Source: Bacilli bacterium (lineage in GTDB: Bacteria; Bacillota_I; Bacilli_A; RF39; UBA660). From it: 64,000 nt of DNA. Below, one piece after another: positions 7,529 to 11,908 of the stretch (positions are counted from its first letter, which is position 1; each line of letters starts with the position of its first letter). The position numbers and the translations under genes are program-made. Location of the stretch: assembly GCA_016293205.1 (NCBI GenBank), contig JAEDES010000001.1, positions 27,447 to 91,446 of the forward strand. The letters are read 5' to 3'. Under the pieces are notes generated by a model, which saw nothing but the letters and a program-made list of their open reading frames with translations, was not told the DNA's origin and ran no database searches.

Positions 7529-10500
7529 TTAGTTCATACTTGGTAAGTCACTACTATTTACAGCTTGATATTTTTCTCCTTCATCTTCATCTGCAATTGC
7601 AGCTGTTTCTGGTTGGAATGCATATTCATCTGTTGGTAATAAGTAATCACTTTCTTCAAGTTCATTTTCATAAGATTCAGTATTTAGAGCTAATTCTGCA
7701 GCGTCTTCTTCTTCCCACTCATCAGCTTCTAATTCTTCTTCTTCATCTTTATTTTCTTTACGTTCTAAGTATGCTTTTGTTCCAAGTCCTGCAAGAGCTG
7801 CTGCTCCAAGACCTGCCATTAATGGAATCATGTTGTTATCTTTTGTATTTACCCTAGTTCTAATTGGATCTGCGCTTGTTGGAATATTAACGCCTTCAGC
7901 TAAATCAATGATTTCTCCTAATCCTGTAGCTTCACCAAATTCTTCAGTTAATGATGAGAAGTTACTATCTTCTCCTCCTGGAAGAACGTCGTTAACTAGA
8001 TTATCTCCTGTTGGATAATCTGGTTTCCAGTCATCATCGTCATCAGCAGTATCATCATCATTATCTGTGTCAGTGTCTGTATCAGTATCTGTATCTGTAT
8101 CTGTATCTGTATCTGTGTCTGTATCTGTGTCTGTATCTGTATCTGTGTCTGTATCAGTATCTGTGTCTGTATCAGTATCTGTATTTGTGTCTGTATCAGT
8201 ATCAGTGTCTGTATCTGCTGGTGGAAGTCCTTCATCAGGATCTGATGGTGGCCATGTAGAATCATCATCTCCTCCACCTGTTGGACAAACACATGGATTT
8301 TGACCACATACTGGACATACTTCTGATGGACAAACGCATGGGTTTTGACCACATGTTGGGCAAACTAGATCTGTTGTACTTTGTTCATTTATACAACTTC
8401 CATCACACTCAAAGCTTCCACAATATGGACAATGTGGTTTTTCTTCTTGTTGGTCAAATATTTCATTAACTTTTTCTTCAATTGCTTGTTGTTCTTGAAC
8501 ATTTTCTCTAATGTCTTGTGCTATTTCACTTCCAACGATAGCAGTAGCATGTCGTCCAATTCTTTGTCCTGCTCCGGCAACTGGGAATTCATCAGCTACA
8601 TCAAGTGTTGTATCAATTACATCATCAATTAAGTCTGTACCATAACGAGCAGTTACTGATTCTTCAGCCATATTTCTAACATATTGTTCACCAACATCAT
8701 ATTTATGAGCATCATCAACACTTTCTAATGCTTCTCTTACTGCATCATCAATTTTGTCATCCATTGTATCTAAAACTTCTTTAGTAGCTTTATCACGAAT
8801 TAAATCTTCACCTTGTTTTAATAAATCTTCAGGATCTGTTGCTCTAACAATATCGTCAACACGAGATGTTGTTTTTTCTGTAATTTCCTTTCCAATTAAT
8901 TCTCCAGCTTTTTCGGATGCTTCTTGTGCTGCTTCTTTTTCTGCAGTTTCTCTTGCTATAGACCTTCCTTGTTCTAGAATATCATCAGTAGGTGTTCCTT
9001 GAACTGCTTTATCTCCTTCTTCTTTTGCAAGTTTTTCTAGGACGTCATCTCCTTCTTTTTGAGCAAGTTCACGAGCTTCTTTTTCTGCAGCATCTTTAAA
9101 TGTTTTTTCTCCTGCATTTTGTAAAGCTTCTTCTCCACCTTGTTTTAGTGCATTTTGTACTGCATTTTCTCCTGCTTCTTTTACAGCTTCTTCAGTGATT
9201 TCTTGTCCTGCTGCTTGGGCAGTTTCTCTTGCTGCTAATTCAGCTTGTTCTCTAATTGCTTGTTCTCCTACATTTCTTAGTCCTTCTGGTCCTAATTCTT
9301 CAAGAGCTTGTTGAACAGCTTTTTCTCCTTGTTCATGTGTATATTGTTCAATCATTTCTTCAGCATGTTCTCTTGCGTATGCTTTATAGTTATTTTCAGC
9401 AGATTCTCTAATTGCATTTTCTCCTAATTGTTGAAGTTGTTCTTCTGTTGCATTTTGAACTGCTCTTTCTCCAGAATCTTTTACATATCTTTCAATGATT
9501 TCATCTGTATTTTGCATTACTTCTTCCATAACTTCTTTTCTTGCTGAGTTATAGATTGCTTCTTTTCCTGCTGCTTGGATTTGTTCTTCTGTTGCATTTT
9601 TAATTGCTTGTTCTCCAGCTTCTCTAGCTTGTGCTTCTAAGGATTCTGTTACCATTTCTTTAGTTTGTGTAGTAATGGCTTCTTCACCTAGTTCAATAAT
9701 TCCTTTTTCTCCAACTGCTGCTACTGCTCGATCTCCACCTTCTTTAATTGCTTTTTCTAGAAGTTTGTTATCTTTAGCCATTTGTTGGAAGGCTTTTTCA
9801 CCTTGTTCTCTAATTGATTTTTCTGCTGCTTCTTTAATTTGAGTTTCAGTTGCATCTTTTAGAGCTTGCTCTCCAGCTTCCTTAATTCCTTTTTCTGCTG
9901 CTTCCATCGATGCTTTTTGAGCAGCTTCATTAATTGCTTTTTCTCCAAGTTCATTAATTGCTTTATTTCCTGCTTTTTCAATTGCTTTATCTGATGCATG
10001 TTTAACAGCTTTATCTCCAGCTTCTTTTAATACTTTTTCTGAAGCTCCTTGTGCTGCTTCTTTTGCTTGTTGTTTTATTACTTTTTCTCCGGCTTCTTTT
10101 ACGGCTTTTTCTGAAGCTTCTTGTACTGCTTTTTCTCCAGCTTCTTTAATAGCATCTTCTGTTACTTCTTTTCCTGCTCTTTCTGCTGATTCTTTAAATG
10201 CTTTTTCAGCTGATTCTCTAATTGCTTTTTCTCCGGCTTCTTGAACACCTTCTTTTCCGGCTTTCTTTGTAACTTCTCTTGCAGCTTTTCTTGCGGCTTT
10301 GTTTGCTGATTCTTGTGCTGCTTTTTCTGCTTGCTCTCTAATTGCTTTTTCTCCGGCTTCTTTTGTTGAGTTAATTCCAGCTTCTTTTGCAGCTTTTTCT
10401 CCGGCTTCTTTAATTTGAGTTTCAGTTGCTTCTTTTACTGCTTTCTTTCCTTCTTGTTTTGCTGCTTTTTCTGCTGCTTCTCTTGCAGATTTTTCTCCGG

Positions 10501-11908
10501 CTTCTCTAATTGAGTTTTCTCCAGCTTCTTTTACTGCTTTTTCTCCCGCTTCTTTTACAGCTTCTTCAGAAATTTCTTTTCCGGCTTTTTCTGCACTTTC
10601 TTTTGCTGCTTTTTCTGCAGATTCTCTAATTGCTTTTTCACCTTGTTCTTTTAATAATTTTTCTGAAGTTTCTTTAACACCTTTTTCTCCAGCTTCTTGT
10701 AAGGCTTTTTCTCCGGCTTCTTTAATTGTTTTTTCAGTTAATTCTTTTCCGGCTTTTTCTGCTGCTTCTTTAGCAGCTTTTTCTCCGGCTTCTCTAATTG
10801 CTTTTTCTCCAGCTTCTTTTACAGCTTTTTCTGTTAATTCTTGACCAGCTTCTTTTAAAGCTTTTTCTCCGGCTTCTTTAATAGCTTGTTCAGATGCTTC
10901 TTTTACGGCTTTTTCTCCACCTTCTTTAATTAACTTTTCAGTTAATTCTTTTCCAGCTTTTTCAGCACCTTCTTTTGCTAATTTTTCAGCACCTTCTTTA
11001 ATTGTCTTTTCAGCAGTTTCTTTTAATAGTTTTTCTCCGGCTTCTTTTGCCATTTGTTGAGTAACTTTTTGTCCAACACCTTTAACTGCTTTGGTTGCTA
11101 ATGGACCTACTAATTCAAGACCATATCCAATTGAAAATGCCATTGTAGCTGCAAATGCTGCATCACCTACAGATGCAGCTGCTGCATCTTGAATAGACAT
11201 ATTTGGATCGGCTATCAATTTTTCTTGTGTTCCGGCACCCATTTCTCCAATAAATGTAAATGCTGCGTCGGCTACTGCTGCAGATAATCCTTGAGTACCT
11301 CCTGTTAGTGCAGCAATTGCAACATAAGCAACGACTGTTCCTGCACCTTTCATAAAGTCTGCTGCCGGATCATCATGATTATAGTTTGCATGTTTTTCAA
11401 TTGCTGCCATGAATGGTACATTTTCAAATGCCCAATCAAATGCTTTTCCTACTGCTTCGTATCTTACTGCATCAGTTAACCATTGTTCAGCATCGCTCCA
11501 TCCTACCCAACCACAAACAACTGCAGCACCAGTCATTAATCCATCAACAATTTGTTCAAAACCTGTTAAGAAACCTTCGGCAAAATTGAATATCGCCATA
11601 CCAGCGTCTGCCCACCAATTTGTTTCAGTTACTGTAACATCACCTTCAAAACTTGTTAACGCATTTAATGTATCTGAAATTCTATTTTTTTCTCCATTAA
11701 TTGATTTTTGATAATCTTTTTTATATTGTTCAATTACTCCTATATTGCTATATACATTAGATACTCTATCCCAACCTGTTTTTGCTTTAAGATTAGTAAT
11801 TAAAGTACCTAGATCGTTAGAACCTAAATATGAACTAATTGAAGATAATTCTGAAATAATGTCTTTTACTTTAGCTTCATTATATGAAAACTCTAAATAA
11901 TCTGACAT
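7529..11908 (-). CDS. Giant 1,459-aa repeat protein. It combines an LXG/WXG100-like N-terminal helical domain, a glycine-rich hydrophobic region, about 60 eleven-residue helical repeats, duplicated Cys knuckles, a (Thr-Asp)n spacer, a C-terminal TM helix and an acidic tail.
   Basis: AAGGAGGG ribosome-binding site 6 nt before the ATG. N-terminus MSDYLEFSYNEAKV...SSYLGSNDLGTL. Glycine-rich, hydrophobic region at residues 100-260. KEAGEKAxKEA repeats over about 9090-11065. CPYCG...VCPTCGQNPCVCP...VCPVCGQNPCVCP at 8268-8440. TD dipeptide repeat at 8066-8218. TM helix MIPLMAGLGAAALAGLGT at about 7780-7845. Confidence 0.7.
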   Translation of the reverse strand: MSDYLEFSYNEAKVKDIISELSSISSYLGSNDLGTLITNLKAKTGWDRVSNVYSNIGVIEQYKKDYQKSINGEKNRISDTLNALTSFEGDVTVTETNWWADAGMAIFNFAEGFLTGFEQIVDGLMTGAAVVCGWVGWSDAEQWLTDAVRYEAVGKAFDWAFENVPFMAAIEKHANYNHDDPAADFMKGAGTVVAYVAIAALTGGTQGLSAAVADAAFTFIGEMGAGTQEKLIADPNMSIQDAAAASVGDAAFAATMAFSIGYGLELVGPLATKAVKGVGQKVTQQMAKEAGEKLLKETAEKTIKEGAEKLAKEGAEKAGKELTEKLIKEGGEKAVKEASEQAIKEAGEKALKEAGQELTEKAVKEAGEKAIREAGEKAAKEAAEKAGKELTEKTIKEAGEKALQEAGEKGVKETSEKLLKEQGEKAIRESAEKAAKESAEKAGKEISEEAVKEAGEKAVKEAGENSIREAGEKSAREAAEKAAKQEGKKAVKEATETQIKEAGEKAAKEAGINSTKEAGEKAIREQAEKAAQESANKAARKAAREVTKKAGKEGVQEAGEKAIRESAEKAFKESAERAGKEVTEDAIKEAGEKAVQEASEKAVKEAGEKVIKQQAKEAAQGASEKVLKEAGDKAVKHASDKAIEKAGNKAINELGEKAINEAAQKASMEAAEKGIKEAGEQALKDATETQIKEAAEKSIREQGEKAFQQMAKDNKLLEKAIKEGGDRAVAAVGEKGIIELGEEAITTQTKEMVTESLEAQAREAGEQAIKNATEEQIQAAGKEAIYNSARKEVMEEVMQNTDEIIERYVKDSGERAVQNATEEQLQQLGENAIRESAENNYKAYAREHAEEMIEQYTHEQGEKAVQQALEELGPEGLRNVGEQAIREQAELAARETAQAAGQEITEEAVKEAGENAVQNALKQGGEEALQNAGEKTFKDAAEKEARELAQKEGDDVLEKLAKEEGDKAVQGTPTDDILEQGRSIARETAEKEAAQEASEKAGELIGKEITEKTTSRVDDIVRATDPEDLLKQGEDLIRDKATKEVLDTMDDKIDDAVREALESVDDAHKYDVGEQYVRNMAEESVTARYGTDLIDDVIDTTLDVADEFPVAGAGQRIGRHATAIVGSEIAQDIRENVQEQQAIEEKVNEIFDQQEEKPHCPYCGSFECDGSCINEQSTTDLVCPTCGQNPCVCPSEVCPVCGQNPCVCPTGGGDDDSTWPPSDPDEGLPPADTDTDTDTDTNTDTDTDTDTDTDTDTDTDTDTDTDTDTDTDTDTDTDTDTDNDDDTADDDDDWKPDYPTGDNLVNDVLPGGEDSNFSSLTEEFGEATGLGEIIDLAEGVNIPTSADPIRTRVNTKDNNMIPLMAGLGAAALAGLGTKAYLERKENKDEEEELEADEWEEEDAAELALNTESYENELEESDYLLPTDEYAFQPETAAIADEDEGEKYQAVNSSDLPSMN

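Follow-up and report, generated by a model that had tools for sequence, protein, structure and literature searches.

What kind of protein is encoded by the largest gene of a 64,000-nucleotide stretch of a Bacilli bacterium genome (assembly GCA_016293205.1, contig JAEDES010000001.1; here termed the window, to which all unlabeled coordinates refer), and on which side of the membrane does it act? The gene, at 7529-11908 on the minus strand, is a genuine open reading frame (ORF) for a giant protein of 1,459 amino acids (aa), the largest other ORF in the window having at most 846 aa. A sequence-only reading had taken the product for an LXG-like substrate of a type VII secretion system (T7SS) with an unprecedented architecture and no recognizable toxin domain. 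Here, we describe the family to which it belongs, along with a cassette of helper genes, and tentatively favor its interpretation as a surface stalk exported in the T7SS manner, anchored by its tail and bearing a chaperoned hydrophobic module at its tip. The big-protein family and two families of small partner proteins, denoted A-type and B-type, are undescribed and have no Pfam coverage.

Conserved ends and a variable middle

A word-indexed search recovered just five close fragments, the alignment of which was used to seed an exhaustive Hidden Markov Model (HMM) search. This search yielded 107 cluster representatives (clusters at 50% identity) at an e-value of <= 1e-3, 32 of them at <= 1e-10. 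The relatives are mostly 600-1,000 aa long, with the profile match starting around residue 4, and follow one plan: the N-terminal ~280 aa and a C-terminal block are kept, and between them lies a hypervariable, repeat-rich middle of low complexity, rich in Thr, Ser, Asn, Pro, Gly and Glu. The architecture is thus not unprecedented, at least 107 clusters (50% identity) having the design in common. A scan of a genome collection placed a close relative in a single species-representative metagenome-assembled genome (MAG) of GTDB. No shared Pfam domain was found in 60 members at e-values of <= 1e-3 or <= 1, and neither these relatives nor the giant protein contain a toxin or enzymatic domain, as the sequence-only reading had stated for the latter. 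The giant protein, with 330 D/E against 172 K/R residues by sequence count, is divided as follows.

7529-11908, minus strand: giant-protein gene, 1,459 aa, stop codon included
11624-11908, minus strand: aa 1-95, helical hairpin (helices 11-42 and 52-87), proposed targeting domain
11069-11623, minus strand: aa 96-280, Ala/Gly-rich hydrophobic helical module (N-module) with the family-invariant motif NFAEGFLTGFEQIVDGLMTGAA
8879-11059, minus strand: aa 284-1010, E/K/A-rich 8-residue repeats (EKAxKEAG), proposed helical stalk
8435-8878, minus strand: aa 1011-1158, acidic non-repetitive segment (D 15%, E 12%, no periodicity)
8282-8431, minus strand: aa 1160-1209, three 4-Cys units, CPYCGSFECDGSC, CPTCGQNPCVCP and CPVCGQNPCVCP
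8030-8215, minus strand: aa 1232-1293, (TD)~25 run followed by poly-Asp, spacer
7769-7891, minus strand: aa 1340-1380, family-conserved block VNIPTSADPI…MIPLMAGLGAAALAGLGTKAY
7778-7831, minus strand: aa 1360-1377, uncharged hydrophobic helix MIPLMAGLGAAALAGLGT
7532-7777, minus strand: aa 1378-1459, acidic tail with the motifs EEW, DYLxPTDEYAF and YxAVNSSxLPSMN, predicted to be cytoplasmic

The first 95 residues are Ser/Asn-rich and helical and contain the previously noted segment SSYLGSNDLGTL at aa 25-36. No signal-peptide-like segment was detected at the N-terminus of the giant protein, where hydrophobicity first appears at about aa 98. The Gly-rich hydrophobic segment reported behind it corresponds to the Ala/Gly-rich block at aa 96-280 (A 21%, G 12%), in which Kyte-Doolittle values (19-residue window) exceed 1.2 at aa 120-139, 182-214 and 242-272; we found no evidence for its likening to a YeeF-type middle domain. 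Within the N-module motif (EG…E…DG), E111 and G112 are invariant, and at least 90% of the family members have E118 and D122. The helices of this module carry 2-4 charged residues each, including the family-invariant Glu and Asp, and are less hydrophobic on average than the C-terminal helix, the sole hydrophobic helix of the protein without charged residues; because of these charges, they do not qualify as classical transmembrane segments. An AlphaFold2 model of aa 1-300 (100-sequence alignment) is all-helical, with a pLDDT of 70.6, and consists of the hairpin, a long helix (98-135) with the conserved motif, short helices, and helices 181-201, 210-233 and 239-266, the N-module being packed as a helical bundle continuous with the hairpin. 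Judging from these charges, the N-module looks like a soluble or conditionally membrane-active bundle, not a constitutive polytopic domain.

Within the family, conservation falls on the C-terminal 120 aa. Over 83 members, the block reads IP…PI…IP..AGLGAAA.AG.G.K.Y.D.K…EEW…Y…D…D, and in the closer relatives the tail is kept to the last residue (…DYLxPTDEYAY…YEAVNSSELxSM[NQ]). The single C-terminal hydrophobic helix that had been described is indeed present, and so is the acidic tail behind it (30 D/E against 5 K/R), the length of which is 82 aa instead of the 65 aa given earlier. In 80 full-length members, the mean number of K/R within 15 residues of the helix is 3.85 after it and 1.74 before it, with the higher count after the helix in 68 members, equal counts in 9 and a lower count in 3. 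By the positive-inside rule, an established principle of membrane protein topology, this excess places the tail in the cytoplasm and the N-terminal part outside; the ~1,360 residues that precede the helix, although devoid of a signal peptide, are therefore predicted to be exported.

The largest part of the middle consists of repeats, which had been described as about 60 copies of an 11-residue unit. Autocorrelation, a row display and Tandem Repeats Finder all give a period of 8 aa: autocorrelation over aa 280-720 reaches 0.47 at lag 8, with peaks at the multiples too, against 0.18 at lag 11, and Tandem Repeats Finder reports a 24-nucleotide (nt) period with 40.8 copies. There are ~55 clean octads (aa 284-720) and ~35 degenerate ones, extending to about aa 1010. 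In the EKAxKEAG unit, the E1-K5 and K2-E6 spacing produces 147 i/i+4 opposite-charge E-K pairs in 433 positions. Single alpha-helices of the ER/K type are a precedent for extended helical spacers, and by analogy the octads suggest such a spacer, with the Gly in every unit urging caution. Both previously noted CPxCGQNPCVCP knuckles are present, as VCPxCGQNPCVCP units at aa 1182-1194 and 1197-1209, and a degenerate third 4-Cys unit, CPYCGSFECDGSC at aa 1160-1172, had been overlooked upstream of them. The TD run comprises 24-26 dipeptides (aa 1232-1282), not about 40.

No 4-Cys units were found in the relatives inspected, for example, in the 911-aa big protein of a related locus (L014), which has the same ends and a middle composed of (APDIKPE)n, (GLMRQGAEEAGQ)n, (ETITD)n and (DDTT)n, with no Cys. 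Because that middle is wholly different, the octads, the Cys knuckles and the TD run are lineage-specific fillings of a variable spacer and do not define the family. Several profile matches to the middle were rejected. The nominally significant FAM25 match of Pfam in the octads is a repeat and composition artifact, as are the matches to the SseC translocon protein of type III secretion systems (PF04888, 19.3 bits against a cutoff of 30.2) and to PRK15362 (26.9 bits against 540), the latter lying in the E/K/A repeats; the NCBIfam matches to SdrC, SdrD and ClfA on the TD run (16-18 bits against cutoffs of 1,150-2,500) reflect repeat composition.

These features could also belong to a tail-anchored cytoplasmic protein with only the C-terminal helix inserted, acting, for example, as scaffold or spacer on the membrane's inner face. 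Such a protein would need no signal peptide, the Cys4 knuckles are reminiscent of zinc-binding motifs in cytoplasmic proteins, and the E/K-rich repeats resemble cytoplasmic single-alpha-helix spacers, but by the positive-inside statistics it is the tail that is cytoplasmic, and not the N-terminal part. Moreover, the 82-aa tail, with its net charge of -25, would need to be translocated, the tail motifs kept to the last residue fit a cytoplasmic interaction site, and a chaperone for hydrophobic helices (see below) would be left without a purpose. We consider this arrangement improbable.

Helical partners and a DUF4176 protein

Upstream of the giant-protein gene, on the same strand, lie a conserved promoter and six genes.

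14156-14258, minus strand: sigma-A-type promoter (TTGCAT at 14258-14253, 17-nt spacer, TACAAT at 14235-14230) and 5' leader
14222-14214 with 14191-14183, minus strand: 9-bp leader stem, UAAGGAUAU at 14222-14214 pairing with the second segment; ribosome-binding site GGAGGTG at 14170-14164
13880-14155, minus strand: A-type partner 1, 91 aa from the ATG at 14155, helical, GLQGTAG turn
13574-13852, minus strand: B-type partner 1, 92 aa, two-helix hairpin, conserved Trp at the turn, C-terminal AEDTREL
13081-13377, minus strand: A-type partner 2, 98 aa, GLAGTAG turn, paralogue of A-type partner 1
12780-13058, minus strand: B-type partner 2, 92 aa, C-terminal AEDRKEL, paralogue of B-type partner 1
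12322-12693, minus strand: C-type protein, 123 aa, no known domain
11948-12277, minus strand: small-class DUF4176 protein, 109 aa (Pfam PF13780), putative chaperone for the hydrophobic module

The ORF listed for A-type partner 1 (111 aa) begins too early; the true ATG at 14155 follows the GGAGGTG element, and the gene call in a related locus (L001) is likewise 91 aa. A-type proteins share the GLxGTAG turn, and B-type proteins the Trp at the turn and a C-terminal AEDxREL. The two types are unrelated families, and comparison of the profiles of the giant protein's head, A and B with hhalign gave probabilities below 2%. Two unrelated helical genes of ~95 aa are always found upstream of the big gene, one of them a confident hairpin, and neither matches Lap-type models; the structure predicted for the B-type is a hairpin of 2 x 44 residues with a pLDDT of 92. 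The B-type family comprises 224 clusters and the A-type family 317, none with a precomputed Pfam domain, and their sources are hypothetical proteins of MAGs labeled "Clostridia/Bacilli/Bacillota/Mycoplasmatota bacterium." The C-type protein is kept in every cassette (111-143 aa in relatives), and the position of its gene is conserved in L001-L003, L006-L008, L010, L014 and L016.

The sequence-only reading had placed WXG100-like and DUF4176-like genes ahead of the big gene. The second assignment is borne out, with a PF13780 match at an e-value of 3.8e-21 (75.4 bits against a cutoff of 25, profile positions 1-69 of 74), and the first is not, given that no WXG100 model matches. DUF4176 proteins are divided into a small class of 70-130 aa and a large class of 200-250 aa, have been characterized solely as chaperones of T7SSb toxins that act on hydrophobic or amphipathic regions, and, in the case of the small class, are speculated to bind membrane-inserting hydrophobic helices (PMC12478183). 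The DUF4176 gene adjoins the big-protein gene in all 10 contexts (10/10), before or after it depending on the locus. Binding of the DUF4176 protein to aa 96-280 is a putative assignment based on this strict adjacency and on the hydrophobic motif conserved at aa 108-129. The DUF4176 proteins of L001, L002 and the window are 94-98% identical, compared with 45-50% for the partners and 72% for the N-modules of the big proteins; those of L003 and L007 are still very similar by eye. This constraint is unusually strong for a supposed client-specific chaperone. Overall, the cassette has the order hairpin-hairpin-(C)-DUF4176-big protein, as in the loci of TelA, TelB and TelE, where the order is lap-lap-DUF4176-toxin (PMC12478183; bioRxiv 10.64898/2026.03.12.711312).

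The promoter and leader are conserved at the nucleotide level in L001, L002, L003, L006 and L010, and partly in L008, where the proteins are just 20-50% identical. The shared pattern is TTGCAy-N17-TATACAAT, then ACATAAGGATATGGGTTCGG…ATATTCTTAA…GGAGGTG, with an upstream box ATGTAAAAAAA(T)GTATAA, and spans the following regions.

Window 14156-14300, minus strand: conserved promoter/leader region
L001 367-661, L002 1-78, L003 8027-8354, L006 8697-8933 and L010 2680-2917: the corresponding regions of relatives

RNAalifold recovers the putative stem UAAGRAUAU/AUAUUCUUA, with one one-sided change (G-U to A-U, in L008) and no compensatory change, and the leader has no match in Rfam. The leader might act as a regulatory RNA or be bound by a protein.

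Some loci contain more than one cassette. In L007 (653-4217) and L014 (1-5422), cassettes are arranged in tandem, each big gene with its own partners, and L016 (10001-18063) contains two big genes and three copies of the DUF4176 gene. In the window, a 196-bp gap (13378-13573) follows the first A/B pair (13574-14155), at the place where a big gene is found in those relatives that have tandem cassettes; the gap is possibly what is left of a first cassette.

Type VII export weighed against other readings

Export of the T7SS type that bypasses Sec is suggested by the hairpin partners, the missing signal peptide, the topology with an exported N-terminus, and the design of conserved ends around a variable middle. 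Under the interpretation that we tentatively favor, the locus would be a chromosomal, vertically inherited cassette of low-GC, spore-forming Bacillota that encodes a surface protein and its cytoplasmic helpers. The ~90-aa N-terminal hairpin would bundle with the partner hairpins (A-type and B-type), and perhaps with the C-type protein, into a composite targeting complex like LXG-Lap1-Lap2 or EsxA/EsxB, while the small DUF4176 protein would shield the Ala/Gly-rich helices of aa 96-280 in the cytoplasm. A T7SS-type ATPase encoded elsewhere in the genome would then export the N-terminal ~1,360 residues until the uncharged C-terminal helix stopped transfer, leaving the protein anchored with its acidic tail in the cytoplasm. 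The hypervariable region, with ~90 E/K/A octads, three Cys knuckles and the (TD)n spacer, would form an extended stalk that spans the wall and holds the hydrophobic N-module distally, where it might enter or attach to another membrane or surface. A bolder form of this proposal, which we regard as rather doubtful, makes the family a new class of type VII-dependent proteins: tail-anchored surface fibers with a chaperone-guarded, membrane-inserting tip, serving as a contact-dependent "harpoon" or tether instead of a released toxin, with the cytoplasmic tail engaged with the secretion machine or signaling partners, and exported by a T7SS variant encoded far from the cassette.

A number of results weigh against T7SS-type export, beginning with the searches for the known substrate families. 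No match to LXG, WXG100, DUF3130 or DUF3958 models of Pfam and NCBIfam was found in the giant protein or its neighbors at an e-value of <= 1, none in the isolated aa 1-131 and 95-283 even at <= 10, and no LXG or WXG100 match in 60 relatives or in four sub-segments of the giant protein at <= 1. Profile searches of PDB with the N-module, the family, the A-type and the B-type returned no LXG, Lap or Esx chain besides weak touches by the B profile: a 7-sequence version reached the WXG100 structures 3O9O, 3GVM and 4LWS (e-values of 0.15-0.3), which were lost with a 56-sequence profile. Comparison with hhalign detected no LXG, WXG100 or Lap similarity in the head, A or B profiles. The A/B partners produced only sub-threshold scores with WXG100-type models (ESAT6_2, e-value 0.0037, 17 bits against 100; EspC, 0.031; WXG100_2, 0.13) and no match to PF06013, DUF3130, DUF3958 or TIGR04197. 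Fold searches were non-discriminating, returning generic helical hairpins only; the best whole-chain structural matches of the B-type model are EsxA proteins, helical-hairpin matches being non-specific, so that the modeled hairpin fold is compatible with WXG100 proteins without being diagnostic.

In addition, no T7SS core was detected around the cassette. FtsK/SpoIIIE, YukC and YukD domains are absent from the 40 window ORFs scanned, and no EssC, EssB, EsaA or YukD was found in the 64-kb window, which belongs to a MAG contig of 116,118 bp, or in the ~10 kb past its right end as read from near-identical contigs, where housekeeping genes alone lie, nor in ~20 kb around nine relatives, which agrees with the earlier statement that the window contains no EssC/EsaA/EssB core genes. 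T7SS variants occur in Clostridia (PMC11217815), and a distant core is therefore plausible but unproven. The cassette occupies a fixed position beside spore-coat and sporulation genes, not in a T7SS island, and the literature searched describes no tail-anchored T7SSb substrate. The C-terminal helix is just 18 residues long and of moderate hydrophobicity (Kyte-Doolittle 1.3). Finally, distant members of one sub-clade (P0026, P0048, P0055, P0085 and P0098) have an extra conserved hydrophobic helix of ~22 residues (MVTGLIIGAAALGLFGLVTAFGD…) preceding the hairpin and lacking a positively charged n-region; this helix bears on how the N-terminus is exported, if it is exported at all, and fits poorly with a soluble targeting domain at that end.

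The same searches dispose of the LXG-like label. An HMM check of the N-terminal region for LXG (PF04740) and WXG100, proposed along with that label, was negative; the hairpin covers ~90 aa (aa 11-87), compared with ~200 aa for an LXG domain, and has no conserved LxG, with only G45 and W46 of the turn region invariant among close relatives. The giant protein is not an LXG toxin because it lacks three defining features of this class, namely, a model match, a ~200-aa LxG domain and a polymorphic toxin C-terminus. A classical LXG polymorphic toxin with a toxin domain too divergent to recognize would share the operon arrangement of LXG cassettes, and could account for a locus copy number that differs between relatives, but conservation in the family is highest at the C-terminus, the variable part consists of low-complexity repeats with no folded domain, there is no LXG match among HMMs or PDB chains, and no immunity-like membrane gene or DUF443/DUF5085 gene follows. 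This possibility is largely refuted and very improbable.

The genomic position of the cassette brings in two further readings. The chromosomal slot of the cassette is the same in the window and in all contexts retrieved (L001-L011, L014-L017), with the order radC-mreC-mreD-M23-M50-PrsW-FtsW/SpoVE-small ORF-cotZ-[cassette]-PTS-EIIB-like-(HisKA)-M29-kinase-like-rluB-GT2-ferredoxin. Next to the cassette, the window contains the following genes.

14451-14846, plus strand: CotZ-family spore-coat gene (Pfam e-value 1.4e-15), divergent from the cassette in every relative, in 1-2 copies
14858-15145, minus strand: conserved ORF of ~95-105 aa beside cotZ, with no domain

A spore-coat gene invariably accompanies the T7SS-style cassette. 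CotZ, YunB, a sporulation-type sigma factor and a SpoIVFB-like M50 protease, all encoded in the window, identify the organism as a spore-former.

One reading that suits this slot has the product as a membrane or envelope protein and no substrate of a T7SS: its N-module and C-terminal helices would self-insert into the membrane of the producing cell via YidC/Sec, with the hairpin proteins and DUF4176 as cytoplasmic assembly factors, holdases or regulators for an envelope scaffold or tether. The several hydrophobic helices of the N-module in addition to the C-terminal one, the extra N-terminal helix of the sub-clade, the lack of a T7SS core near any of the loci, and a single-copy, syntenic, vertically inherited gene amid envelope genes (mreCD, FtsW/SpoVE, PrsW, M23, M50) are all consistent with it. 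We nonetheless consider it unlikely: the N-module helices carry 2-4 charges and are less hydrophobic than the C-terminal helix, AlphaFold2 packs them in a bundle continuous with the hairpin, and DUF4176 is known solely from T7SS contexts (PMC12478183).

The other reading is a structural protein of sporulation, made in the mother cell and, for example, anchored in the outer forespore membrane or forming part of an exosporium or appendage, with the small helical proteins as assembly partners. Repeat-, Thr- and Cys-rich regions are frequent in spore surface proteins, the cassette always lies beside one or two divergent CotZ genes within a block of SpoVE/FtsW, SpoIVFB-like M50 and M23 genes, and YunB and a sporulation-type sigma factor are encoded in the window. 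The conserved promoter (TTGCAT-17-TACAAT), however, fits sigma-A better than sigma-E or sigma-K and has no -35 element like those of the latter two, and a sporulation promoter for the cassette was accordingly rejected. Furthermore, the synteny may merely reflect vertical inheritance, no paper in the literature searched joins DUF4176 with spores, and the positive-inside pattern favors a real membrane anchor with an exported N-terminus. A spore role thus seems distinctly unlikely.

Neighboring genes and comparison with known systems

Three genes follow the giant-protein gene on the same strand.

5951-7420, minus strand: 489-aa accessory gene, found in the closest relatives only and 62% identical to a 486-aa gene of L014 (L014 5552-7012)
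5445-5876, minus strand: 143-aa gene, kept after the big gene in L003 and L014
5142-5435, minus strand: 97-aa gene, likewise kept in L003 and L014

The 489-aa protein has Pfam matches below threshold to GH76, GH127 and GH88, and its best PDB match is a GH76 alpha-1,6-mannanase (e-value 0.0099). Its relative in L014 has a "faint" LANC_like tag, with no such match in the window protein at an e-value of <= 1. The product is possibly an (alpha/alpha)6-toroid protein, to judge from these profile matches. Modification of the Cys knuckles by this neighbor in the manner of LanC was considered and rejected, as the relative has the same neighbor beside a Cys-free big protein. The 489-aa gene may be transcribed on its own, to judge from a hairpin (7485-7507) and a promoter-like site (7470-7441). 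The downstream genes, which include small soluble proteins, showed no match to immunity families in Pfam.

Farther along, the plus strand at 4479-4736 contains an 85-aa ORF rich in Asn, Tyr, Gly and Pro (…NNYQSMYRNNQTLYNNG…GGYYPQPIYPMPIPYPCCGNNYHNNFYR), with a central Gly-rich hydrophobic stretch and no domain match. It has counterparts of equal size and position in L003 (84 aa), L014 and L015 (both 85 aa), and its composition is reminiscent of spore-coat proteins. Elsewhere in the window, Pfam recognizes no domain in three large ORFs at 23330-25714, 37814-39565 and 42589-44133 (794, 583 and 514 aa). The largest of them has only a weak C-terminal zinc-ribbon match and is conserved beside radC in L003, L006 and L016 (773-809 aa). 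Housekeeping context is provided by 13 tRNA genes at 39795-40962 (minus strand) and by a T-box leader at 28480-28683 upstream of the valyl-tRNA synthetase gene.

What is known of T7SSb biology rests almost wholly on released LXG toxins and small WXG100 proteins, and an anchored, toxin-less family would widen the range of export. If the interpretation holds, this family would be the first defined type of client for the small-class DUF4176 chaperones, a question left open in the literature, and would point to a surface structure specific to widespread uncultured spore-formers of the gut. The big-protein, A-type and B-type families can be defined from the present alignments. In the literature searched, no system pairs helpers of the T7SS style with a repeat protein that lacks a toxin and is anchored at its C-terminus; clear analogues of the individual components exist in known systems.

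Among the closest of these are the LXG cassettes with Lap1/Lap2 and DUF4176 (Ltc/Lcp) proteins, those of TelA and TelB of Streptococcus intermedius and TelE of S. gallolyticus (PMC12478183; PMC10801868; bioRxiv 10.64898/2026.03.12.711312), which have the same gene order, a helical substrate N-terminus without a signal peptide and, likewise, a hydrophobic or amphipathic region after the N-terminal domain as a plausible DUF4176 site. In contrast to these, the present cassette shows no LXG, DUF3130 or DUF3958 similarity, a hairpin of ~90 instead of ~200 aa, an extra C-type protein, no toxin domain, immunity gene or T7SS island, and a conserved, membrane-anchored C-terminus. Small-class DUF4176 genes rarely adjoin LXG genes according to the literature, and it is the small class that the giant-protein cassette contains.

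Mycobacterial PE_PGRS and PPE-MPTR proteins with EspG (T7SSa/ESX-5) offer a functional analogy, in that a helical targeting domain, a partner hairpin and a chaperone bring fast-evolving repeats to the cell surface; they come from another phylum and show no homology, PE/PPE proteins are not tail-anchored, and EspG is unrelated to DUF4176. The Sdr/Clf MSCRAMM proteins have (SD)n where the giant protein has (TD)n, in both cases linking an N-terminal functional part to the anchor at the C-terminus, but the giant protein has no YSIRK/Sec signal peptide, LPXTG or Ig-like A domain. TsdI of T7SSd (PMC11217815) is also large (~1,650 aa) with a C-terminal transmembrane helix, spans the envelope and is encoded with T7SS genes; it has a Sec signal peptide and Ig-like domains, neither of which occurs in the giant-protein family, and is a proposed component of the machine. 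The membrane-depolarizing T7SSb toxins TspA, TelD and TelE, with their glycine-zipper helices, likewise have no signal peptide and Gly/Ala-rich hydrophobic helices, the very type that small DUF4176 proteins have been speculated to chaperone. Compared by description, these toxins are ~450-520 aa long with the membrane-active part at the C-terminus, whereas in the giant protein the hydrophobic module follows the hairpin and is itself followed by ~1,100 residues and the anchor.

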